Sequence record: NC_027995.1
Reading direction: 5' to 3' (one strand)
DNA: 41,666 nt
Source of the DNA: Escherichia phage vB_EcoM_ECO1230-10
Positions 1,820-38,154 of the stretch are shown piece after piece. Positions within the stretch are counted from its first letter, which is position 1. The number at the start of each line of letters is the position of its first letter. The position numbers were made by a program, and so were the translations under genes. The notes below the pieces were generated by a model. That model made no database searches. It saw only the letters and a list, made by a program, of their open reading frames with translations, and was not told the origin of the DNA.

Positions 1820-2131
1820 TTACGCCGTCAGTTCGGCGGGTTTGTCTTTGGTCAGTTGGTCAGGTTCCTGGTGGTCGTCACCGTCGATTGGCATCAGACA
1901 TCTTGGCGCAAAAAGCGACCAGCCTTGATCATGTTCACATCCTTTTGGATAAACATTCCCGGTCACCAACCATGAGGCATCGGCTTTCAGAGATAAGAAA
2001 GTCTCTCCGCCTGTAGGAATGTTAAACATCTGGCCAGGGGTGACAAAACGAACCAGCGTTACACACTTCCCGGCGTGTGGGTTGTCACCAATAACCAGCG
2101 CCAGGCAACCGGCTTTCAGTTCGCCTTTCAT
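1820..2131 (-). CDS. hypothetical protein (103 aa)
   Basis: ORF track; ATG overlaps upstream stop (ATGA coupling with ParB-like gene). Confidence 0.55.
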   Translation of the reverse strand: MKGELKAGCLALVIGDNPHAGKCVTLVRFVTPGQMFNIPTGGETFLSLKADASWLVTGNVYPKGCEHDQGWSLFAPRCLMPIDGDDHQEPDQLTKDKPAELTA

Positions 2132-3003
2132 TCCGGCACCCCGCCCACGTAATCAGCCACCAGGGCCATGAATTCACGCACCACGCCAGCAGGTGCGCGC
2201 AGGGTCATGGATTCGTCATCCTCGGCATCTTCCAGACGTTCATCGCTGTGGACCAGTTCGATATGCACAGCCAGGTCAGCCAGGCGCGTCAGCTTGTCTT
2301 TGCCAAACGGTGGCTGGATGGCTTCCGGCTTGGCCTTCTGCGCTTTCGGTGCCTTCGGCTCGGTGAATTTCTTCGTTACTTTATCCTTGCCAGCGGCTTT
2401 GGCTTCTTCCAGCGCCTGTGCGGCCACGGCTTCTGCTTCGGTTCCGTGCTGGCGTGTCAGTTCGGTGGCGGTCACGTAGGACATCTGGCCGCCGCGCACC
2501 ATGTCTTTGATGGGGTCCGGGCACTCAGCCAGGGCCAGCATGTTGGCCACGTCTGACGGGCTGCGCTTCACCTTCCTGGCTATCTCGTCATTGGTCCAGC
2601 CCTGCGCTTTCAGGCGCGCATAGGCTTTGGCGCGTTCCAGCGGTTCCAGTGGCTTGCCCTGGCTGCTGGTGACCATCAGCGCGATTTTGTCAGCCTCACT
2701 GGTGCCGGTGATGTCGTTCACTTCCAGACGCAGTTCCATGCCGGTTTCTGCGGCCATCTTGGCACCGGCAAAGCGGTGGTGGCCGTCAATCACCTTGATG
2801 CCATGCTGCGTCACTTCCACGGTCAGCGGAGGCACATATTCACCTGCCAGGTACGCATCGCGGAATTCTTCAACGTGCGCCTGGTCCACGTCGCGGATGT
2901 TGTAGCCATCTTCCACATACAGTTCAGCCAGCGGTACCCAAAACACCTTGCGCGGCTTTGCTTCTGTTTGTTTTGATTTATAAAGTTGTCCGATAGTAGC
3001 CAT
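2128..3003 (-). CDS. ParB-like nuclease domain protein
   Basis: IDGHHRFAGAKMA ParB/Srx-type motif in N-terminal half, followed by HTH-like segment and Lys/Ala-rich linker. Confidence 0.7.
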   Translation of the reverse strand: MATIGQLYKSKQTEAKPRKVFWVPLAELYVEDGYNIRDVDQAHVEEFRDAYLAGEYVPPLTVEVTQHGIKVIDGHHRFAGAKMAAETGMELRLEVNDITGTSEADKIALMVTSSQGKPLEPLERAKAYARLKAQGWTNDEIARKVKRSPSDVANMLALAECPDPIKDMVRGGQMSYVTATELTRQHGTEAEAVAAQALEEAKAAGKDKVTKKFTEPKAPKAQKAKPEAIQPPFGKDKLTRLADLAVHIELVHSDERLEDAEDDESMTLRAPAGVVREFMALVADYVGGVPE

Positions 3004-3885: not shown

Positions 3886-5040
3886 TTATTTTTCTTCAAT
3901 GACGTGACCAGGTCCGTCATCGCCTTCGTTAATGTCCTTTTCTTCGATCACGTGTCCTGGACCATCATCGTCAGGCGGGTCGCTTTCTTGCGGCTTCCTG
4001 CGCTCGATGATTTGCACCTTAGGTTCTTCTTCGCTGTTCGGCTTCGTTGCTTCCACGTCGCACGAATAACCATTATCATCCAGCCTGTGATCTGCGCGGG
4101 TAATCAGCCATTCCCCATCAATGCCATCTCGGAACCCAACAAGCACCAGTTTGCATTCAGCGGCAATGGTCGGGTCACCAGGCAGCGTTACGGCAACAGT
4201 CACCTGGTTGCGCTGACGCTTAGACAGTTCGGCTTTGGCTGCGTCCAGTGCCATTGCCTGCGTTGGGTAGTATTTGCCAATGCGTTTTACCGGCTCACCT
4301 TCGCCAACCTTCACTTCGTTGCGCGCGGCCTTCTTCGTCACCTGGTAGTAAGCCACCACCGTGCCTGCGTTTTCGCGCTTCTGGCTGGTTAGCCGGAATG
4401 CGGTGCAATCCTGCGCCGTCAGCGTTATGGTTGGCAGTTCTTCGCCGCTGGCCGTCTTACCTTCTCCGCGCTTCGTGACCGTGATTTTGCCGCCTGATGG
4501 CTTCACTACGCCGTCATATTTCTTGGCCAGTCGCAGTAACAGGTTCAGGTCAGATTCATCGGCCTGGTCGGTGTGGGGCAGGGTGATTTTGGCCATGCTA
4601 TCTGACACGGCTGATTCCATGCCGTGTTCTTCGGCAATCTTCTTCACCATGTCGCCAAACTTCGTGCCTTTGGTCCAGCTACGTGATTTTTGCGTTTGCA
4701 GGTCGGTTTTGCCTCCCTTTGACTTGTCATAGGTGGCGGCGCGCGCCCTGATTGTCATGGCGCCTGGCCAGCCAGCCAGTTCCACTTCGTCACAGATGAA
4801 CAAGCCCATGCGCTGTGTCCAGTTATCATAACCCAGGAACAGTTCCAGTTCTGCGCCTGTTTCCGGCATCTGGATTGGGTTGGCCGGTTCATCATCGGCA
4901 AGGCTTATTTCCAGCGTGTCAGATTCCAGCCCCACACCATCGGACAGGCTAAGACTTATCAGGCGTTCATTGATTTTTGCGGTGATGTCATCGCCGTTGG
5001 CCAGCACGCGAAACGCTGGCGCAATTCCAGTCAATCCCAT
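3886..5040 (-). CDS. tail protein D (P2 gpD / late control D family)
   Basis: size and sequence style of P2 gpD; terminal position in tail operon after U and X; C-terminal DDGPGHVIEEK x2. Confidence 0.85.
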   Translation of the reverse strand: MGLTGIAPAFRVLANGDDITAKINERLISLSLSDGVGLESDTLEISLADDEPANPIQMPETGAELELFLGYDNWTQRMGLFICDEVELAGWPGAMTIRARAATYDKSKGGKTDLQTQKSRSWTKGTKFGDMVKKIAEEHGMESAVSDSMAKITLPHTDQADESDLNLLLRLAKKYDGVVKPSGGKITVTKRGEGKTASGEELPTITLTAQDCTAFRLTSQKRENAGTVVAYYQVTKKAARNEVKVGEGEPVKRIGKYYPTQAMALDAAKAELSKRQRNQVTVAVTLPGDPTIAAECKLVLVGFRDGIDGEWLITRADHRLDDNGYSCDVEATKPNSEEEPKVQIIERRKPQESDPPDDDGPGHVIEEKDINEGDDGPGHVIEEK

Positions 5041-23712: not shown

Positions 23713-25761
23713 TCACCAGCGGCTAACCCATCCACCGCCACGGCGTTTTGCTGCCCTGGCGGAACGTTTAATGGTCTTAGTCTCTGTGACTTGCTGTTTT
23801 TCTTCTTCTTGGGGTTTGTCATTTGCCGGTTGCGGTGTTTCTACCGGTTTCATGACTGGTTTGACGCTCGGCAGCCGCTTGCGGCGTTCCGGTGGCGCGT
23901 TGTCGTTTGCTACCCCAAACTTTTCAGCCAGGCGGCGGAATGACGGCTGCATGATTTTCAGCGCGGCCAGCGCATAGTTGCGGCAGTCCAGTGCTTCGTT
24001 GCGCGCCCGGTCGGGTTTCTTCCATTCTCGGATTGGCTGGCCCTTCACGTAACGCATGGTCAGCTTTTCAGCGGTGATTTGCTTGAACCATTCTTCATCG
24101 CGGTCAGCAGGGAAGTGGCAATAACCCGGCCCCGGTGCCGTCTTGTTTAAACGCCTTGCGGTTATCAGCTTGGCTTCATCGGTTCCAACCAGGAACAAAT
24201 CCACTTTGCGGGTATCCTTCCCGGATTGCTTGCGCTGCGGCTTCTCCACGATAGGGCGGCCCCATCCACCAACGCCTTTGATGGCAAACAGGCGGCGGCC
24301 TGTGCGGCCTCTTGCGTAGTCGTATGCGGCCTGCGTGTAACCGCTGGTGCCCCCGGTATCGAGGCAGGCGGCCATGATCGGCATGATGGCCCCGGTTTCG
24401 TGCTGGTAGGTTTCCGCCAGCAGGTCATCCAGCGCATCCCAGGGGTCTGGCGTCAGCGGGTCGCCCCACAGGACGTGGTAACCCAATGACCAGGATTCTT
24501 CACCCACGCCCCAGGCCACAACCTCACATTCCAGGCGGTCAACCTGCATGTCTATGCCTGCGGTGATATACAGACCACCAGCAGGCACCTGCGCGGCGTA
24601 TTCCTCGCGGCGCGCCATCAGTGAATCCGGGTCAACCTTGTCGCCTTCTTCTTCCCATGTGCGCGCCAGGCTGACGTTGGTGAAGGTTTGCAGGTCGTCC
24701 GTTTTCAGCTTGTCCAGGTAGTCACGCACGATGGCCGGTACTTTACGGAATGTGCTGTATAGTTCGTTCAGGTGGTAGCTGGCGTGACCTTCAAACGGCC
24801 TGGATGCCTTCCATCCTGCGCCCTTTTCTTCGGCCTGGCGGATAGCCGCTATCCGTTCGCCGTCATTCCACTGCGCGCCGCATGATGGGCAATACAGGTG
24901 CGCTGTTTCCGGCTTCTGTTCGTCGATGGCCGCCAGCGTTTCCGCGTCAGTTTCGCGCTGGCCATCCCATTTGACGTTTTCCCATTCAAGCGTAACGTGA
25001 TCGTCACAGTGCGGGCAGCAAACATAGAAGTGTCGCTGGTCGCCCATTTCATACGCTTTTTCGATGTACGATTCCCCCTTAAGGGTAGGGGTGCTGATTT
25101 CCAGCAAAAACCGTTGGTCACCGAAGGTGGCAGAACGCTGCCACAGCAGGCCAACCGGGTGACCTTCGCTGGTTCGTTCATATCCGTCTACCTCGTCACA
25201 TACGATCAGCGGCGCTGAACGACCGCGCATGGTCTTTGGCGAACCGGACCATGCGAACATCAGGAACCCGCCAGGGTATGATTTCATTTTCTGGTTGTTC
25301 ACCCCGTCGCGGCCACGCGGTTTGGCAATGGCGTTGTTTACCGGCGCGCATTCTTCCGCCAGCGGGTTGAATTTTGTTTCCAGCCAGGTGCGCAAGTCAT
25401 CCTGGCTTGGCTGCATCATCATCTGGCTGCGCGGTTCAGCGGCTACGCTGTACGCCTGCACGCACAGTGCCAGCATGGTTTTGCCCACCTGTGCGCCCCA
25501 CATCAGCGTTACGCGGTAGCAATCCGGGTCAACCAGCATGTCCATTGGTTCGCGCTGGTATGGCGCGTTATCCAGGCGCAGCGGCCCTGGCACGGCGTTG
25601 CCAGACGGAATGCGGATGTTTGCCTGCGCCCACTCTGACGGCTTCATGTCTGGCGGCGGCAACAATTGTTGTTGTGCGCGCCTGATGGCCTGGTCGATGC
25701 CTTCAATGTTGGCAAACGGGTTATTCTTCGCTGTCACCGTCGCCCCCTTCGTCATAGCCAT
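23713..25761 (-). CDS. terminase large subunit (lambda gpA family)
   Basis: 682 aa; N-terminal PSEWAQANIRIP...MWGAQVGKT region aligns with lambda A; nuclease and ATPase motifs present. Confidence 0.9.
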   Translation of the reverse strand: MAMTKGATVTAKNNPFANIEGIDQAIRRAQQQLLPPPDMKPSEWAQANIRIPSGNAVPGPLRLDNAPYQREPMDMLVDPDCYRVTLMWGAQVGKTMLALCVQAYSVAAEPRSQMMMQPSQDDLRTWLETKFNPLAEECAPVNNAIAKPRGRDGVNNQKMKSYPGGFLMFAWSGSPKTMRGRSAPLIVCDEVDGYERTSEGHPVGLLWQRSATFGDQRFLLEISTPTLKGESYIEKAYEMGDQRHFYVCCPHCDDHVTLEWENVKWDGQRETDAETLAAIDEQKPETAHLYCPSCGAQWNDGERIAAIRQAEEKGAGWKASRPFEGHASYHLNELYSTFRKVPAIVRDYLDKLKTDDLQTFTNVSLARTWEEEGDKVDPDSLMARREEYAAQVPAGGLYITAGIDMQVDRLECEVVAWGVGEESWSLGYHVLWGDPLTPDPWDALDDLLAETYQHETGAIMPIMAACLDTGGTSGYTQAAYDYARGRTGRRLFAIKGVGGWGRPIVEKPQRKQSGKDTRKVDLFLVGTDEAKLITARRLNKTAPGPGYCHFPADRDEEWFKQITAEKLTMRYVKGQPIREWKKPDRARNEALDCRNYALAALKIMQPSFRRLAEKFGVANDNAPPERRKRLPSVKPVMKPVETPQPANDKPQEEEKQQVTETKTIKRSARAAKRRGGGWVSRW
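23803..23820 (-). promoter_or_regulatory. late-junction motif copy 4, in terminase C-terminal codons
   Basis: exact 18-mer encoding DKPQEE; 97 nt upstream of the next gene's GTG start. Confidence 0.45.
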
Positions 25762-26245
25762 CCAGCAGGGAAGCTGTCACCAGTGATTTCAGCACTTCGT
25801 CAATCTCTGACATCATCACCGATTTGAACCGGCGTTCATCGGTTTCACCGATAAGCATTGAAACGGTGCGCTGTGGCAGGTTGCGCATCCCGGCGCGCAC
25901 TTCCGCGAAGGCGCGGGCAACGGCGCGTTCAACCTGGTCGAGTGGTGCCACTTCGCCTTTGGCTTTGGCCAGTTCCAGTTCTGCTTTTTCGGTTTCGGCT
26001 GCCAGCTTGCGGCGCTTCAATTCCGTTTCATCTGCCAGCATGTCACCGGTGGCCGCTTTCACATCGCGTTCACGCAACCAGGCCGCCACCTGCGCGGTGT
26101 CGTACTCCCATTCTTTACCGCGCCCGCCAAGTGTTACATAGGGCGCGCCATCTTTTCGCCACTGGTCAACTGTTGGCGGTGCTACCCCGAAAACTTCCGC
26201 CAGGCCGCTGCGGTTAACTGTTCGGCCTTTTATTGCTTTTGCCAA
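25721..26245 (-). CDS. terminase small subunit (lambda Nu1-like)
   Basis: TTG start with AAGGCG SD; VNRSGLAEVFGVAPPTVDQWRKDGAPYV...GGRGKEWEYD matches Nu1 wing-helix. Confidence 0.7.
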   Translation of the reverse strand: MAKAIKGRTVNRSGLAEVFGVAPPTVDQWRKDGAPYVTLGGRGKEWEYDTAQVAAWLRERDVKAATGDMLADETELKRRKLAAETEKAELELAKAKGEVAPLDQVERAVARAFAEVRAGMRNLPQRTVSMLIGETDERRFKSVMMSEIDEVLKSLVTASLLDGYDEGGDGDSEE

Positions 26246-27995: not shown

Positions 27996-28430
27996 TTATT
28001 GCCCCGTAGTCATTAGTAGTCGGTGCTGATGGTTGTCATTTGCAGGTGATGTGTCTTTATGGGGTTTGTCAGTGCAATGGCGCTTAACGGTGCGTTCTGA
28101 AACGTCCAACAGTTCCGCGATGGTTTTCGCGTCCACTCCTTCGCTGTGCATCCGCTTAATGCTGCGGTGAATGAAATGGCGGTAAATGTATTCACAATTA
28201 GCCGGGTGAAGCATTTCACCACCGAAGTGCTGCACCATCTTGCTGGCATCGTGCCACCCCAGGATTTTCACCAGTGGGTCATTGGGTCGGATCCGCTTTG
28301 GTACATACAGGATGACTTTGTGGTATTGCTGCGATGGCACCCACAGTTTTGGTAGTTGTCCGATAAGAAAAAGCGCACGTTCACGGCCAATAACGTCAGC
28401 TATTTCCTGCACAGTGCGCGGTAATTCCAT
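27996..28430 (-). CDS. Mor/C-family transcriptional activator (candidate late activator)
   Basis: FGGEML...(about 20 aa)...VDAKTIAELLDVSERTVKRH matches Mor/C layout; located immediately upstream of lysis genes as Mu C is. Confidence 0.55.
   Translation of the reverse strand: MELPRTVQEIADVIGRERALFLIGQLPKLWVPSQQYHKVILYVPKRIRPNDPLVKILGWHDASKMVQHFGGEMLHPANCEYIYRHFIHRSIKRMHSEGVDAKTIAELLDVSERTVKRHCTDKPHKDTSPANDNHQHRLLMTTGQ
28054..28070 (-). promoter_or_regulatory. late-junction motif copy 5 (variant GACAAACCCCATAAAGA), upstream of holin
   Basis: 13 of 17 match, same strand and frame (TDKPHKD) inside activator gene 3' end; 64 nt from holin ATG. Confidence 0.35.
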
Positions 28431-28500
28431 GTAACCCCCAATAATTATAAATAAAAGTCAATATGGGGATTGTAGCACACAGAATATACGAAAGTAACAA

Positions 28501-28768
28501 GGGACTAACTTGGGACTATCTCAGCAAAAGATAGTCCCACTGTTATGCTATTGATTAACTTAAAGAAAACGCCATTTTCTGGCTGATTTGGGACAAGTGG
28601 GACCAAATTTCCCTATATATACTATTACTCCCCATATATTTATAAATAATGTTTTATAAAAAGATAGTCCCTTATAGTCCCAAATGGTGTTTTCGTTATT
28701 AATATCAATAACTTAACGTGGGACCAGCTCAAAAAAAGATAGTCCCATTTGGGACCATAGATAGTCCC
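28501..28768. repeat. iteron-like cluster of 9-bp motif GATAGTCCC with AT-rich tract
   Basis: GATAGTCCC at 28530, 28663, 28738, 28760; TATAGTCCC 28673; inverted GGGACTATC 28512 and GGGACTAAC 28501; GGGAC(C/A)A x4; AT-rich tract 28611-28662. Confidence 0.7.
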
Positions 28769-28829
28769 AAATCGCATTTGTGTGACAATTACTTACCAGA
28801 AAAAGAGGTTAATATTGCTAAATCAACCA

Positions 28830-28854
28830 AAGAAAAAACCGCCCGAAGGCGGTT
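28830..28854 (-). terminator. intrinsic terminator after AP2-like gene
   Basis: minus sense aaccgcc-ttcg-ggcggtt followed by TTTTTTC. Confidence 0.6.
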
Positions 28855-28859
28855 AGTGT

Positions 28860-30816: not shown

Positions 30817-33120
30817 TCAAAATGGCCGGTCATCATCGTCATTGAATCGCCGGTGGTCAGGATTTGGCACCTTCGGCGGCAGGCTGAACAGGCGGTTGCT
30901 GCCAGACTTCCTGGCTGGCTTGCCAGTGAGTTTTCGAAGCACGCCAGCGCAATGGGTTGTCTGTGCCTTGTTCGGCTTATCGTAGCCTATTTCTTGCAGC
31001 ACCTGGGTTGCTGTACGGTCGGTGTAGGCTGCTGGTCTGTCGCAACCCCACTCGTAACGCATCAGTATCATTTCCTCTACCGGGTCAATCGCTTCGTGTT
31101 CCTTGTTCACTTGTTCCAGCATGGCTTCTTCTTCTGCGTTCATCCACCAGCGTTCGCCTTCGCGGTACAACTGCGCCACTTCTGCCCAAACTTGCTGCAT
31201 ATCAATATCGTGTTCGTAGTTGATGCGTGTTACCGGAATGGTCCACCAGCGAACGTTCCCTGTGTCATCCGCCAGGAAGTGTTTCGGGTTCACTGACGCA
31301 AAAAACACGGTTCTGCGCTGGTAGGTCGATTCAAGCCGGTCGTAAGGTCTGCGGATTTCGTCACGGTCCTGGCTGATGAATGATTTCAGGCGCGCAATGT
31401 CGGATTTGCGAAAAGTTGCATCCAGTTCGCCAAGCTCCACCATCCAGCGGCCAATTGCGCTGCTCACGCTGTCTTTGTTTGCCGGGTCGATTGTTGCCCC
31501 TACCTTAATTAATTCACGCAGTGTAGGCGGAACCAGCGAACGAAACCATGCTGTTTTCCCCAGCGACTGTTCACCCTGTAGCACCAGAACTCCTTTTGAG
31601 TAGAACCCGGTTGGCTGCATTGCTGCGGCAACGGCGGAAATCAACCAGCGGCGAACCATCATCAACACCAGACTGCGGTCAAAACCTTCCGCCGTTTCCA
31701 GTGTGTCACACAGGTCATAAATTCTGCTTACTCCATCCCACGGTTTTGCGGTGATAAATTCAGATGCAGGGTTGTAACGGTTGCTCATGGCAATCAGCTT
31801 TACATATTCAGCACAGGAACCAGACGGCATACCGTTGCGGGCACACAGGCTGACAATTTCAGTCAATGCACTGTTCGCTGATGCGTCGTTTCCGTAATCC
31901 TTTCCGGGGATCGTAACCACCACATCTTTGCTGATTTCGTTGTAACGCGATTTGATGCCGTACTGGTCAAGCAGCCATTCCAGGTTTTCCCACGTGTTAA
32001 GCGGTTTTTGCTGGTGGCTCATGTGCGGGAACATGAACGGGTTTACGCTGGCATCCAGAGGCAGAAAGTTATCATTCACCGGTTCCGGTATCACCGCGTT
32101 AATCTGGTCGCTTACAGCGTTTAAACCTTCCAGCACGTGCAGGTCATTAAAGTCGGTAGGCTTATCGCTAAGGCGCGTAAATTTAGGAACCGCCAGCAGG
32201 CCACCTGTTGTGATTGATGCCTGGCGCGCGTAGTGAACTCCATCATTTTGCTTGCCATCTTCGTGCCACTGGTCATTATCGGCTGCCACAACAATTGTTG
32301 CGCGTCCGAACTGCTGGCGCATCAGCTTGGCTACGGTCGGAACGTTTCCAGCATCGAAAGCGACCACCACGCAGTAACCGGTAGCCATGTGAATTGATGC
32401 GCCGGTGGAATACCCTTCACAGATAACAATAACCGGGTTTGCGCCAGTTGGTTTGTTGCCAATGACGTGGAAGCACCCACGTTTCTGGCCGCCCGGCAGG
32501 TAATCACGGTCACGCCCTAGCTGTGGGTTTTCGTTCTGGAATATGGCTTGCAGGCTGGTGATCTGCCCGTCAATGTTTCTGATTGGCACCAGCAGCGCGC
32601 CATCCTGGTTACGAAAACGACCGATGCGCAGCCCGAATGATTTAACCAGTTTGCGTTTCAGGTATGGGTGTTCATCGCCTTCCAGTTCGGTAGCTGATTC
32701 CCATATGTTGCGCGCCTGCTCTGCTGCCTGCGCCATACGTTCGGCGCGCAGTTGTTGTTCTTTGCGCTCTTCTTCTTCGCGGCGTTGTTTGCGCGCCTGA
32801 ATTTCTTCTGCAGAAATCGGCGTGCGTTCGTTGTCGTTCAGCGAAAAGCCAAATAACTGCGCCTCACCAATCAGGGTGCCAATGCCAATGCCGCCGTGAC
32901 GCTTCACTGATTTCCAGGTGTCGCGTGCGTCTTTGCTGTTGTACTTGTCAGACTGGCGTGACCAGTCATTCCAGACGGTGAAACCGCCGTCGCCTAGTTC
33001 CGATTTGACCGCCATCGCCATGCGCACCCATGTTTCACGGTCGCAACCGGCGTCAATGTAGGAAAGTGCTTCTGCAATTTCCTGTTCGGTCAAATCCTTA
33101 TAGTTTTGTTGTGCACTCAT
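30817..33120 (-). CDS. DNA primase / replicative NTPase (PriCT + TOPRIM + P-loop, P4-alpha/D5-like)
   Basis: TOPRIM VIVICEGYSTGASI and VVAADND; Walker A GEQSLGKT; 767 aa; C-terminus ends DDDDRPF. Confidence 0.85.
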   Translation of the reverse strand: MSAQQNYKDLTEQEIAEALSYIDAGCDRETWVRMAMAVKSELGDGGFTVWNDWSRQSDKYNSKDARDTWKSVKRHGGIGIGTLIGEAQLFGFSLNDNERTPISAEEIQARKQRREEEERKEQQLRAERMAQAAEQARNIWESATELEGDEHPYLKRKLVKSFGLRIGRFRNQDGALLVPIRNIDGQITSLQAIFQNENPQLGRDRDYLPGGQKRGCFHVIGNKPTGANPVIVICEGYSTGASIHMATGYCVVVAFDAGNVPTVAKLMRQQFGRATIVVAADNDQWHEDGKQNDGVHYARQASITTGGLLAVPKFTRLSDKPTDFNDLHVLEGLNAVSDQINAVIPEPVNDNFLPLDASVNPFMFPHMSHQQKPLNTWENLEWLLDQYGIKSRYNEISKDVVVTIPGKDYGNDASANSALTEIVSLCARNGMPSGSCAEYVKLIAMSNRYNPASEFITAKPWDGVSRIYDLCDTLETAEGFDRSLVLMMVRRWLISAVAAAMQPTGFYSKGVLVLQGEQSLGKTAWFRSLVPPTLRELIKVGATIDPANKDSVSSAIGRWMVELGELDATFRKSDIARLKSFISQDRDEIRRPYDRLESTYQRRTVFFASVNPKHFLADDTGNVRWWTIPVTRINYEHDIDMQQVWAEVAQLYREGERWWMNAEEEAMLEQVNKEHEAIDPVEEMILMRYEWGCDRPAAYTDRTATQVLQEIGYDKPNKAQTTHCAGVLRKLTGKPARKSGSNRLFSLPPKVPNPDHRRFNDDDDRPF

Positions 33121-33132
33121 AGAACCCCGATT

Positions 33133-33363
33133 TTATGGCCTGTTAGCGCGCCATATGGCCAGTGCGCGTTGTTCTAGTTCTTCGCGGGCTGTTGCTCCGC
33201 GCCGTTTTTCTATCGCTGCCAGCAGGGTGCGCCGTGCTTCAATGGTTGGCTGATTCAGAACGTATTTGGCTTCGCATTCCAGCAACCATTCCCGGCTATC
33301 GCTCAACACTTCGCGCCCATCGTGCAGCGTCACTGTGGTGGGCTGCCAGGTACAGGCGTTCAC
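33133..33363 (-). CDS. hypothetical protein (76 aa)
   Basis: ORF track; coupled to upstream gene. Confidence 0.5.
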   Translation of the reverse strand: MNACTWQPTTVTLHDGREVLSDSREWLLECEAKYVLNQPTIEARRTLLAAIEKRRGATAREELEQRALAIWRANRP

Positions 33364-34058
33364 GCGACAGCCTCACCGCTTGACGGTTCATTGTCGTTAG
33401 CGTGGCGCAGGTGAGTCGCGTTGGCGTTGAAAACAGCAATGGCGAAGCCCAATGGCGTTGCGCTGCGGATGTTTGCACGCTCTGGACCAGGTGGGCATTT
33501 ATGGATTCTGTCATCTGGCGCGCCTAACGTTTCATCGCGGAACGCTTCCGGCATAACGAAACCGCCACCAGTCCAAAGGCATGTTTTCTTTGTGTAATTG
33601 TCGTTTGCGCAATATCCAGTAAAGTCAGCCGGGTTGAAAGCGTAGTCGGGTTTACGCCACAGGCTGCTAATCTGGCTTACCGGGTTTTCAACGGCCCACG
33701 GCACACCGGCCATCTCGCCAATAATCTGGCACTGCCACACAACGTGCATTGCTTTGAACTGGAAAGCCGGGTCAGCCTCACGTTTCGTGCTAAACCAGCG
33801 AGCACCGCTTACCGCCAAATCAGTGCATGGAGGGAACCCCATAACAAAAACAACGTGACCAGTGGACACGGTGCGGCGCAAAATATCCCACGTAGCTGGA
33901 TGGTCGATAATATGGCCAACGCGGGTGATTGCGCCATCAACGTGAACGCCTTCCGGGTGCTGCGGGTCAACCAGAACGGCTTCATAACCTGCGTCAACCC
34001 ACGGCTTTGCCATTACGCCAGTGATGTCACACAGGCAGATAATAATTCCTTTACTCAT
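33360..34058 (-). CDS. small C5-cytosine-methyltransferase-like protein (minimal, 232 aa)
   Basis: GFPPC (motif IV-like Pro-Cys) and AVENP (motif VI-like ENV) about 44 aa apart; no clear FxGxGG motif I; too short for a canonical Dcm. Confidence 0.4.
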   Translation of the reverse strand: MSKGIIICLCDITGVMAKPWVDAGYEAVLVDPQHPEGVHVDGAITRVGHIIDHPATWDILRRTVSTGHVVFVMGFPPCTDLAVSGARWFSTKREADPAFQFKAMHVVWQCQIIGEMAGVPWAVENPVSQISSLWRKPDYAFNPADFTGYCANDNYTKKTCLWTGGGFVMPEAFRDETLGAPDDRIHKCPPGPERANIRSATPLGFAIAVFNANATHLRHANDNEPSSGEAVA

Positions 34059-35962: not shown

Positions 35963-36631
35963 TTATTTGCCGGTCGGAATCCCACACAGCGCGTTCAGGT
36001 CAGCGACTGACAGCGCAATGCCAGTGCATGGCTGTTTAGCAATCGGCGTAGTTTCTGGAATCAGTTCTTTTGCATCTGGCCATGCTTCCAGGAGTTTTTC
36101 CACAGTTGTGAACCCTGAAATTGTCGCTTTCAGTGTTGATTTAAGCGTGTTGTATTCTTCACGCAGTTGCGCAGCTTCCTGGTCGATAGCGTCCAGTTCT
36201 TCGCGCCATTTCGGATCGCATACGATGAAATCTTTTTCGCAGGTATGCGGTGAATATTTTTTCTCGTCGTATTCAGCCACCGATTCCTTGAATAGCGGTT
36301 CATATCGTGCATCGGTGTTAACGCCGTTGCGATAAACGTAACGAGACTGGCCGGATAAATTAACGTCTAAACGGTATTGGCTACCATCAAATTCTACTCG
36401 CACATAGCTAGCGCCTTCGTGCTTAACCTCTTTTGCAAGTTTCTCAACCTGCTCCTTGATTTCTGCCAGTCGTTCATCAGTCAGACCGTATTCACCCAGG
36501 ATAAATAGGCGCAGACGTTCAGCAAAATCAGCGCGTTTCTGAACGATAGCCAAATCACGGCCTGCAAAGTCTTTGGTTTTGATTGCGTTGGCAATGATGC
36601 CATCACGGATTGCAGCGGTTAAACGTGCCAT
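35963..36631 (-). CDS. hypothetical protein (222 aa)
   Basis: start MARLTAAI with AAGAGGAAA SD; the track's longer ORF starts at the ATG inside element A. Confidence 0.6.
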   Translation of the reverse strand: MARLTAAIRDGIIANAIKTKDFAGRDLAIVQKRADFAERLRLFILGEYGLTDERLAEIKEQVEKLAKEVKHEGASYVRVEFDGSQYRLDVNLSGQSRYVYRNGVNTDARYEPLFKESVAEYDEKKYSPHTCEKDFIVCDPKWREELDAIDQEAAQLREEYNTLKSTLKATISGFTTVEKLLEAWPDAKELIPETTPIAKQPCTGIALSVADLNALCGIPTGK

Positions 36632-36675
36632 TTTGGTGTTTCCTCTTTTGTTGTTGAGCACCTGTGTGCCGGTGA

Positions 36676-36731
36676 AATAACTATACATTTCCTTTGGTAA
36701 ATATCGCCAATCGGTTGTACCTATTAATAAA
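36676..36731 (-). promoter_or_regulatory. conserved intergenic element copy A (downstream of helicase)
   Basis: homologous to 30737-30790; contains AGGAAATG. Confidence 0.4.
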
Positions 36732-36735
36732 CACG

Positions 36736-38154
36736 CTATTTACGTTTAAATCTTCTTCCGCCCATCTTCGCTATGGCCCAACCTGATGGGTTCGGCAGCC
36801 CTCGTTTCATCGCCAGGGCGGTCAGTGCGCCAATGTCTTTGCACGCATCTTCTTCGCGCCTCATCTTGGCGCGCAGACTTTCTTTGGCGCGTTCGTCCAT
36901 TTCGCGCAGTTCACCTTCCGCCACTTCAATTTCTTTGGCTTCGGCCTGTAGTTCCTTCTGGCAGTGCGGGCACTTCGGCGGCAGCGGTCTTCGGATGGCG
37001 TTGAAACAGCCTTTGCAGATGACTGGCGGCGGTGGTCCACCAGCGCTGCTGGATTTGCTGCCGCTATCATCGCCAGCCAGTGACCATTCCCGTTCATCAT
37101 CGGGGAAGCCATGACGCAGCGCATTGCCAGCGTGGTCCAGGATGATGGCGGTTTTTCCTTTGGACGGTCGCAACACGCGCCCATCTTTCTGTAACACCAG
37201 CGACAATGATTGTGTGGGCTGCGCGTCAATCAGGCAGTCAATCGTCACGTCAGTCTGCGCGATGGCTGACAGGTCGAAACCTTCACCGAACAGGGACACG
37301 TTGAAAATCACATCCAGGTTATCGTTGGCGTAGTCCTGAATGATGCGCTTGCGTTCCGCCTTATCGGTGCCGCCGTCCAGGTGTGCGGCTCGGATGCCTG
37401 AATCAATGAATGCCTGCGTTAAATGGCGGCTGTGTGCGATGTTTACCGCAAAGCCAACCGTTTTCATGCCTTTGGCGTATTTCAGCCAGTGGCTGATGAT
37501 GTTGCCGGTTAGTTTCGGTTTATCCATCTTCTCGGCGGTTTCGCCTTTTGAGAAATCGCCCATCTGCTTGCGTACACCCTTCATGTCAGGGATGTCCGGG
37601 CAGAACATGCGATAATCAGACAGGTGGCCGTTATCCATCAGCCAGCGCACAGATGGCCCCAACACGATGTCATCAAAGTGGTCATCCAGGCCGGTGCCGT
37701 CCAGGCGCTTTGGCGTGGCTGACAGGCCGATGACATACGCGCCATTCTCAAACAGCCAGGCGTTGACGCGTGCCCAACCAGCCGCGCCACAGTGGTGCGC
37801 TTCGTCCATGATTGCCAGTTTAGGGGCGGGCAGGGTGTGCAGGCGGTTTTTCAGGGTGTCGATGCTGCACACCTGCACCCCGGCGCGCAGGTTCATGGGA
37901 TAGCCTGCGGCAATAAAGCCGTGATCAATGCCGAACTTGCGAAACGTCAGGCTGGTTTGCAGCACCAGTTCTGCGCGGTGGCAAATAAACCACACCTGCT
38001 GCCCTTTTGACGATGCTTCCCCAGCCATGAATGACGCCAGCGCAGTTTTCCCCGCGCCTGTTGGTGCCTGCAATAACACGCGCCGGTTGCGCCGCATACA
38101 AAGGCGCGCCCTATTGATAATGTCGGATTGATAGTCCCTAAGTATTACGCCCAT
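36736..38154 (-). CDS. DEAH-box superfamily-2 helicase with C-terminal zinc ribbon
   Basis: Walker A APTGAGKT; MDEAHH box; CKGC...CPHC; first gene of minus-strand early operon. Confidence 0.85.
   Translation of the reverse strand: MGVILRDYQSDIINRARLCMRRNRRVLLQAPTGAGKTALASFMAGEASSKGQQVWFICHRAELVLQTSLTFRKFGIDHGFIAAGYPMNLRAGVQVCSIDTLKNRLHTLPAPKLAIMDEAHHCGAAGWARVNAWLFENGAYVIGLSATPKRLDGTGLDDHFDDIVLGPSVRWLMDNGHLSDYRMFCPDIPDMKGVRKQMGDFSKGETAEKMDKPKLTGNIISHWLKYAKGMKTVGFAVNIAHSRHLTQAFIDSGIRAAHLDGGTDKAERKRIIQDYANDNLDVIFNVSLFGEGFDLSAIAQTDVTIDCLIDAQPTQSLSLVLQKDGRVLRPSKGKTAIILDHAGNALRHGFPDDEREWSLAGDDSGSKSSSAGGPPPPVICKGCFNAIRRPLPPKCPHCQKELQAEAKEIEVAEGELREMDERAKESLRAKMRREEDACKDIGALTALAMKRGLPNPSGWAIAKMGGRRFKRK

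Follow-up and report, generated by a model that had tools for sequence, protein, structure and literature searches.

The non-coding gap at 28431-28859 (429 bp) of Escherichia phage vB_EcoM_ECO1230-10 is very probably the replication origin of the phage, of the type served by a self-loading primase-helicase, to judge from the layout of its repeats and from comparison with related genomes. The window referred to below is the whole stretch of DNA that was analysed, the 41,666 nucleotides of sequence record NC_027995.1. The phage belongs to the genus Jilinvirus (Iiscvirinae), with ECOO78, ep3, HeidiAbel, PT1 and Arya among its kin. Iiscvirinae/Jilinvirus phages are characterised as poorly known in the BASEL paper, which describes no origin for the genus (PMC11990801). 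A literature search on these phage names returned no paper focused on their replication, and a search for VapE-type primases with iterons in phages returned nothing relevant. The element is of a kind already known, the initiator-iteron origin of SaPIs, PICIs and P4; for this phage group it is not yet described.

Genes in the window lie mostly on the minus strand, and the gap separates the terminator of the early unit from the start of the late-activator gene (Table 1). This is the setting given in the original prediction, after a terminator and directly upstream of a Mor/C-like gene, and it holds on both sides. The terminator hairpin is also found in ECOO78, HeidiAbel, ep3 and the related locus L068. 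Most related loci keep the TACAAT of the putative -10 element, 34-45 nt ahead of the start codon of Mor; a simple sigma-70 scan of the gap region found no full promoter. An Rfam scan of the gap returned no RNA family, only one sub-threshold chance match. GC skew across the window shows no shift at the gap, and since the skew tracks transcription direction it says nothing for or against an origin.

Table 1. Features of the candidate origin, its flanks and its candidate initiator (window coordinates).
Feature	Position	Strand	Comment
Late transcriptional activator gene (Mor/C-like)	27996..28430	-	phrog_836, E 7e-30; directly downstream of gap
Putative extended -10, TGcTACAAT	28469..28477	-	44 nt before late-activator ATG; read by eye from sequence
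Promoter-proximal iteron group	28500-28507 (+), 28511-28518 (+), 28532-28539 (-)		holds palindromic pair TGGGACTATCT-N7-AGATAGTCCCA
Inner iteron pair, Mor side	28589..28605	+	TGGGACAA + TGGGACCA, 9 bp apart, opposite to other inner pair
AT-rich centre, predicted DNA-unwinding element	28611..28662		81% AT
Inner iteron pair, terminator side	28665..28682	-	AGGGACTA + TGGGACTA, 10 bp apart, point towards AT tract
Outer iteron group	28719-28726 (+), 28740-28747 (-), 28750-28757 (+), 28762-28769 (-)		start-to-start 21, 10, 12 bp
Rho-independent terminator	28837..28854	-	7-bp stem, 5 GC pairs, T-run; closes early (primase) unit, just upstream of repeats
Primase-helicase gene, 767 aa, candidate initiator	30817..33120	-	PriCT_2 + Toprim + VapE-like helicase + predicted C-terminal winged helix
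Predicted C-terminal winged-helix domain, aa 683-750, coding region	30871..31074	-	
Wing-tip codons G740-S741-N742	30895..30903	-	

The repeats had been described as a 9-bp motif, and every copy listed for the gap is present: four direct copies of GATAGTCCC on the plus strand at 28530, 28663, 28738 and 28760, a single variant TATAGTCCC at 28673, two inverted copies (GGGACTATC at 28512-28520 and GGGACTAAC at 28501-28509), and four GGGAC(C/A)A sites starting at 28589, 28598, 28719 and 28750. The reported inverted repeat with a 9-nt spacer is the pair 28512-28520/28530-28538, which can be extended to arms of 11 nt separated by 7 nt. The repeat unit is better described, however, as the 8-mer [TA]GGGAC[TCA]A. 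This 8-mer occurs 13 times in the 41.7-kb window and 11 of the 13 copies are inside the gap, a density of 25.6 per kb against 0.05 per kb outside; by simple arithmetic, the chance of finding 11 of 13 sites in 1% of the sequence is about 1e-20. Neighbouring sites in the gap are spaced 9-12 or 21 bp apart.

The arrangement of the sites is as distinctive as their number. Two plus-strand sites (28589, 28598) and two minus-strand sites (28665, 28675) face each other across the AT-rich tract. That tract had also been noted originally, and its composition contrasts with a window mean of 47% AT; outside the part where it lies, no 52-bp stretch of the window reaches 80% AT. A 34-nt unit (D1) carrying a palindromic site pair is present twice, at 28506-28539 and at 28714-28747, and the second copy is overlapped by the outer iteron group. 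A separate feature is a 36-nt imperfect inverted repeat, 28542-28577/28682-28717 (75% complementary), which brackets the inner iterons and the AT tract, so that the core as a whole has a dyad symmetry additional to that of its iterons.

Only two 8-mers lie outside the gap, at 38132 and 40421, both isolated. The original prediction had pointed to an extra motif copy at 38130-38138 in the helicase gene; the copy exists, but it stands outside the system. ECOO78, whose gap carries a different motif, has it without a single base change, so we regard it as conserved coding sequence and a coincidence, and reject it as a second cis site. As a side observation, GGGAC/GTCCC is scarce outside the gap: a third-order Markov model predicts about 18 occurrences (simple base composition gives a rough estimate of about 80), where the window has 13 and ECOO78 has 6. 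The scarcity is seen in both genomes whichever iteron class they use, and restriction avoidance is a possible cause. Class-specific avoidance of the iteron word was considered and rejected, as the word is rarer still in ECOO78, which has no GGGAC iterons; GGTGAC outside the gap of ECOO78 occurs 48 times, with about 50 expected.

Relatives of this phage keep the element and change its word. In ECOO78, HeidiAbel and ep3, the flanking genes are about 90% identical to those of the window and the terminator and promoter-proximal sequence are the same, while the repeats read (G/T)GTCACC/GGTGAC and are laid out as in the window (the ECOO78 counterparts of the terminator-side and Mor-side inner pairs are GGTGACTAAGGGTGACAAG and TTGTCACCTTAGTCACC). 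A scan of viral contigs with the Mor protein supplied 62 related loci, of which 37 had enough upstream sequence for k-mer counts in the 700 bp upstream of Mor. About 26 of these 37 have a locus-specific over-represented word there; the words are GGGAC, GGTGAC, AGTGAC, GGTTAC, GGTAAC, GGGTAC, GTGTA and TGACYA. An AT-enriched central spacer of 63-92 bp is found in many relatives, and the inner core of two sites on each side recurs in ECOO78, L014, L068, L070 and L071. With the layout constant and the words different, the element is conserved in place and architecture, its sequence specificity having changed repeatedly. In the comparison with relatives proposed originally as a check, gap and layout are kept and the motif word varies. 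Since the words differ among phages that all infect E. coli, the specific binder cannot be a host protein.

Some loci depart from the common plan. In ep3 (L003), an extra minus-strand ORF at about 3915-4200, beginning MIEQKLDRIIELLE and with its own terminator, sits between the early terminator and the iterons and lengthens the gap, which here measures 758 bp; in L027 and L035 the iterons are preceded by ORFs that carry a similar "LERIADALE" motif. Phage MQ-4 (L075, 1817-2206) has 15 GTAAC sites and a primase with a different, longer C-terminal half. The primases of MQ-4, L012, L022 and L030 have about 900-925 aa and align with the window protein over the N-terminal ~350 aa only; the iterons in these four are GTAAC/GGTTAC. 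This looks like a second initiator type at the same origin position and with the same layout.

The candidate initiator is the primase-helicase encoded by the early unit. Its VapE-like domain covers aa 460-676 (Pfam, E 2e-51), with no Pfam domain in the tail after aa 676, and a phmmer search against PDB matches aa 443-633 to SaPI Rep1 (7pds_A, E 9e-18). For aa 640-767, an AlphaFold2 model based on a 34-sequence alignment reaches a mean pLDDT of 81 (about 90 over aa 680-750) and shows the order helix-strand-helix-helix-strand-strand, so that the tail is predicted to be a winged-helix domain. The modelled recognition helix is at aa 718-732; the wing strands are at aa 737-739 and 742-747, which would place G740 and S741 in the turn. 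The sequence of the C-terminal domain found nothing significant in PDB, and a protein search with the C-terminal 130 aa alone returned one match.

The primase-helicase is 82% identical to the protein of ECOO78, where other shared early proteins are mostly 93-98% identical. With its counterparts in L007 and L008, two loci that have the same GGGAC motif, the identity is 86%, and for their other proteins it is 59-76%. In the window, 1.96 kb lie between the end of the primase gene (30817) and the start of the cluster (28769), with four non-conserved ORFs and the terminator in between; the cluster is always downstream of the primase gene and on the same strand, 0.5-2 kb away overall and 0.5-0.9 kb away in relatives. 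In Salmonella phage PT1 (L076, 8556-10860) the primase-helicase is annotated as two ORFs, a 366-aa "DNA primase" and a 395-aa hypothetical protein, which suggests a frameshift or sequencing error in an otherwise conserved gene.

When the C-termini of 28 homologues are aligned and compared with the motif class of each locus, the class tracks a short C-terminal segment. The wing [ST]GS.R pairs with GGGAC in 14/14 loci and the wing [ST]K.GR with GGTGAC in 11/11; other pairings are TATSR with AGTGACCA and SNGR. with GTGTA. In an 816-column primase alignment comparing 12 GGGAC with 5 GGTGAC loci, G740, S741 and N742 are the only perfectly separating columns, and the same comparison for Mor, the DUF7696 protein and the 77-aa HTH protein gives zero class-separating columns. 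Motif class and helicase-core phylogeny do not agree: in at least five lineage pairs (L007/L006, L028/L017, L025/L023, L014/L069 and L033/L035) the cores are 82-93% identical and the classes are opposite. Judging from these pairs, wing and iteron have switched together independently in at least five lineages. The three-residue wing tip (G-S-x or K-x-G) may be a natural, repeatedly re-used switch of the initiator between GGGAC and GGTGAC iterons.

Within Jilinvirus, a query-anchored pile-up of 5 genomes against 7 places 20 of 22 discriminating primase positions in aa 687-765; such positions number 0-3 in the ORFs on either side of the gap and in the small ORFs of the early region. Here the C-terminal domain is exchanged as a whole block, and the recognition-helix residues T721, A725 and G726 change along with the wing; specificity may therefore depend on more than the wing tip.

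The motif was called from the wing alone for four homologues whose genomic context was fetched only afterwards, and all four calls were correct. P0057 (wing SGSNR) proved to come from L068, with 12 GGGAC in the gap; P0108 (SGSRR) from L070, a Cupriavidus contig with 10 GGGAC; P0119 (SGSHR) from L072, with GGGAC in the 2+2 layout; and P0114 (TKAGR) from L071, which has 10 GGTGAC and is GGGAC-free. Arya, KA2-1, PT1, Alux-21 and ep3, with [ST]KNGR wings, have 9-13 GGTGAC sites each. L014 and L027 were put in the GGGAC class after their wings were known, and are consistent cases rather than independent tests. Of the binders named in the original prediction, then, the C-terminal region of the primase is the one that the co-variation and the blind predictions favour; the 77-aa HTH protein, one of the HTH class also listed there, carries no class-specific residues.

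The closest parallel to this arrangement is the origin recognised by the Rep and PriRep proteins of SaPIs, which has 6-12 penta- or hexanucleotide iterons and an AT-rich centre flanked on each side by two or more iterons, those of one side oriented against those of the other; the C-terminal winged helix reads the iterons, the helicase loads itself, and melting is ATP-independent (PMC9371898). The PICIs of E. coli have the same origin design (PMC6092414). In this group of elements (SaPI1, SaPIbov1, SaPI5, E. coli PICIs) a helicase serves as initiator, in some cases fused to a primase, and Rep and ori form allelic specificity groups (PMC9371898, PMC6092414). The window shares a VapE-like initiator core homologous to SaPI Rep1, a predicted C-terminal winged helix, eleven sites (built on a GGGAC core) where 6-12 are described, opposed inner pairs around an 81% AT centre, and initiator alleles that, by co-variation, seem matched to their own iterons. 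It differs in that the SaPI origin lies immediately 3' of rep, whereas the candidate origin of the window lies 1.96 kb downstream and abuts the late-activator promoter; in that the window is a full-size 41.7-kb myophage and not a satellite; and in the N-terminal part of the initiator, which is PriCT_2 plus Toprim.

As the gap agrees in almost every point with what has been published on SaPI Rep/PriRep origins, we propose a corresponding series of steps for binding, melting, self-loading and priming. The early operon would yield the 767-aa primase-helicase, whose C-terminal winged helix would bind the 8-bp iterons, with G740-S741-N742 at the wing tip helping to set the iteron sequence that is read. 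The opposed inner pairs would put protein on both sides of the AT tract, and the outer groups (28500-28539 and 28719-28769) may contribute cooperative binding. The tract would then melt and helicase hexamers load themselves, after which the Toprim domain of the same protein would prime and a host polymerase take over. We infer binding, melting, helicase loading and origin activity at the gap from sequence comparison; the SaPI/PICI-like layout, the co-variation with the winged helix and the blind predictions together favour the origin (iterons plus unwinding element) among the functions first suggested for this region.

P4 offers a second, more distant parallel. Its alpha protein is likewise a single polypeptide (777 aa, against 767 aa) with primase, helicase and a C-terminal origin-binding part, the last being putative in the window protein. 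The Toprim regions are 30% identical over 254 aa (BLASTP, E 3e-16) and both match Toprim_3; BLASTP finds no similarity between P4 alpha and the window protein outside the Toprim region. P4 has 8-bp type-1 repeats in both orientations, and the terminator of the alpha gene is closely followed by crr. There is a resemblance between the P4 repeat GGTGAACA and the GGTGACAA class of ECOO78; set side by side, the type-1 repeat (L078, 4291-4590) GGTGAACA/TGTTCACC is about one base off the ECOO78-type iteron GGTGACAA/TTGTCACC, and no similarity is detectable between the P4 and ECOO78-type origin-binding domains. Unlike the window protein, which is VapE-like, with DUF5906 at sub-threshold level only and no Pox_D5, P4 alpha has D5_N/DUF5906/Pox_D5; the solved P4 origin-binding domain is not among the fold matches listed for the window domain. 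P4 also needs two separated cis regions (ori and crr), where the window has one cluster.

Iteron plasmids and lambdoid phages (RepA/pi/TrfA, lambda O) share, as is generally known, repeated initiator sites by an AT-rich region, winged-helix-type initiator domains and specificity groups (PMC4980987). Their iterons, however, are 17-22 bp and mostly direct, against 8 bp in both orientations here, and their initiator is neither helicase nor primase and recruits host DnaB, whereas the putative binder of the window carries both domains.

The position of the cluster raises the question of the neighbouring promoter. In Mu-like and P2-like phages, replication is required for late transcription. We count this in favour of a dual function, in which the gap is an origin and the mor promoter beside it is also controlled by initiator binding or origin firing, so that late expression is tied to replication. 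In the majority of related loci examined, from many hosts and motif classes, the cluster is directly next to mor, and a promoter-proximal iteron group is found both in the window and in ECOO78. We nevertheless think such coupling unlikely: the distance from the last site to the -10 element ranges from 16 to 62 nt among relatives, so the geometry is not conserved; adjacency to mor is broken in L070, where another gene stands between cluster and Mor-like gene, and in L071, where the next gene is not Mor; and plain conservation of gene order would look alike.

The variable distance and the same two loci also speak against another interpretation, that the repeats are operators of the mor promoter at which a bound regulator switches mor and no replication starts. 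The gap does lie directly upstream of mor and its -10 element, the nearest iteron ends 26 nt upstream of TGcTACAAT, about where an activator would sit, and the last site of ECOO78 overlaps the -35 position. L014, on the other hand, has the 2+2 core only, 62 nt from the -10, and inverted pairs around an AT-rich spacer of 60-90 bp are unnecessary for an operator. The protein that co-varies with the motif is the primase-helicase, and not Mor or the 77-aa HTH "repressor", the regulators tested. The multi-operator promoter suggested originally as the other function for the region is thus the weaker of the two suggestions, and we consider it improbable.

The preferred reading, an origin bound by the primase-helicase, also has to be set against other binders that might have been inherited together with the motif: the 105-aa ORF that adjoins the gap, the 274-aa ORF, the 232-aa ORF (33360-34058), or some gene beyond the flanks that were retrieved. 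The flanks examined span 7 kb and most of each relative's genome lies beyond them, and the window and ET-SD-TH both have the 232-aa ORF, which ECOO78 lacks. But the classes cannot be told apart at any position of the 105-aa ORF, and in the 274-aa ORF at three scattered ones; the middle part of the 274-aa ORF is different in ET-SD-TH and in the window, two phages with the same motif; and neither ORF is conserved across the family, as the element is. The 232-aa ORF was rejected as binder, being a methyltransferase that is absent from L007/L008 (same motif) and present in KA2-1 (other motif). Also rejected, for want of co-variation with the motif, were the 105-aa and 274-aa ORFs, Mor, DUF7696, the 77-aa HTH protein, the small early ORFs, TerS and the ParB-like protein. 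A co-inherited binder other than the primase-helicase is very improbable. It is more improbable still, to the point of dismissal, that the repeats are a pac or parS site for a small terminase or ParB-like protein: such sites do contain repeated short motifs and the phage encodes both TerS (25721-26245) and a ParB-like protein (2128-3003), but these are 97.7% and 95.8% identical between the window and ECOO78 despite their different motifs, and the ends of the ECOO78 record map near 26.3 kb of the window, by terS and not at the gap.

Two other genes of the window are worth noting. The 232-aa ORF (minus strand) encodes a DNA methyltransferase (phrog_757, E 4e-81), inserted between the DUF7696 and HTH genes; it is found in ET-SD-TH, L068 and KA2-1. 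ECOO78, which lacks it, has a different methyltransferase between primase and origin (L004, 3889-4866). A 241-aa protein at 35963-36688 (minus strand) has an Nmad5 domain (nucleotide modification associated domain 5; Pfam E 8e-38); ECOO78 lacks this protein, and L008 has it at 98% identity. It may be a sign of DNA base modification.

With this analysis, the Iiscvirinae/Jilinvirus phages gain concrete, testable candidates for an origin and its initiator. If these are correct, a design formerly described as unique to PICI/SaPI satellites would be found also in a widespread family of full-size myophages and in their prophage-like relatives. The natural series of wing-tip and iteron switches would provide a data set for how a winged helix reads DNA; it could aid the prediction of replicon compatibility between co-infecting phages, and the construction of orthogonal primase-helicase/origin pairs for phage engineering. 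A dual function, if true, would mean that origin firing or initiator occupancy is coupled to the start of late transcription. Should the wing-tip switch hold, it would define groups of replicon specificity that pass between phages of different hosts.
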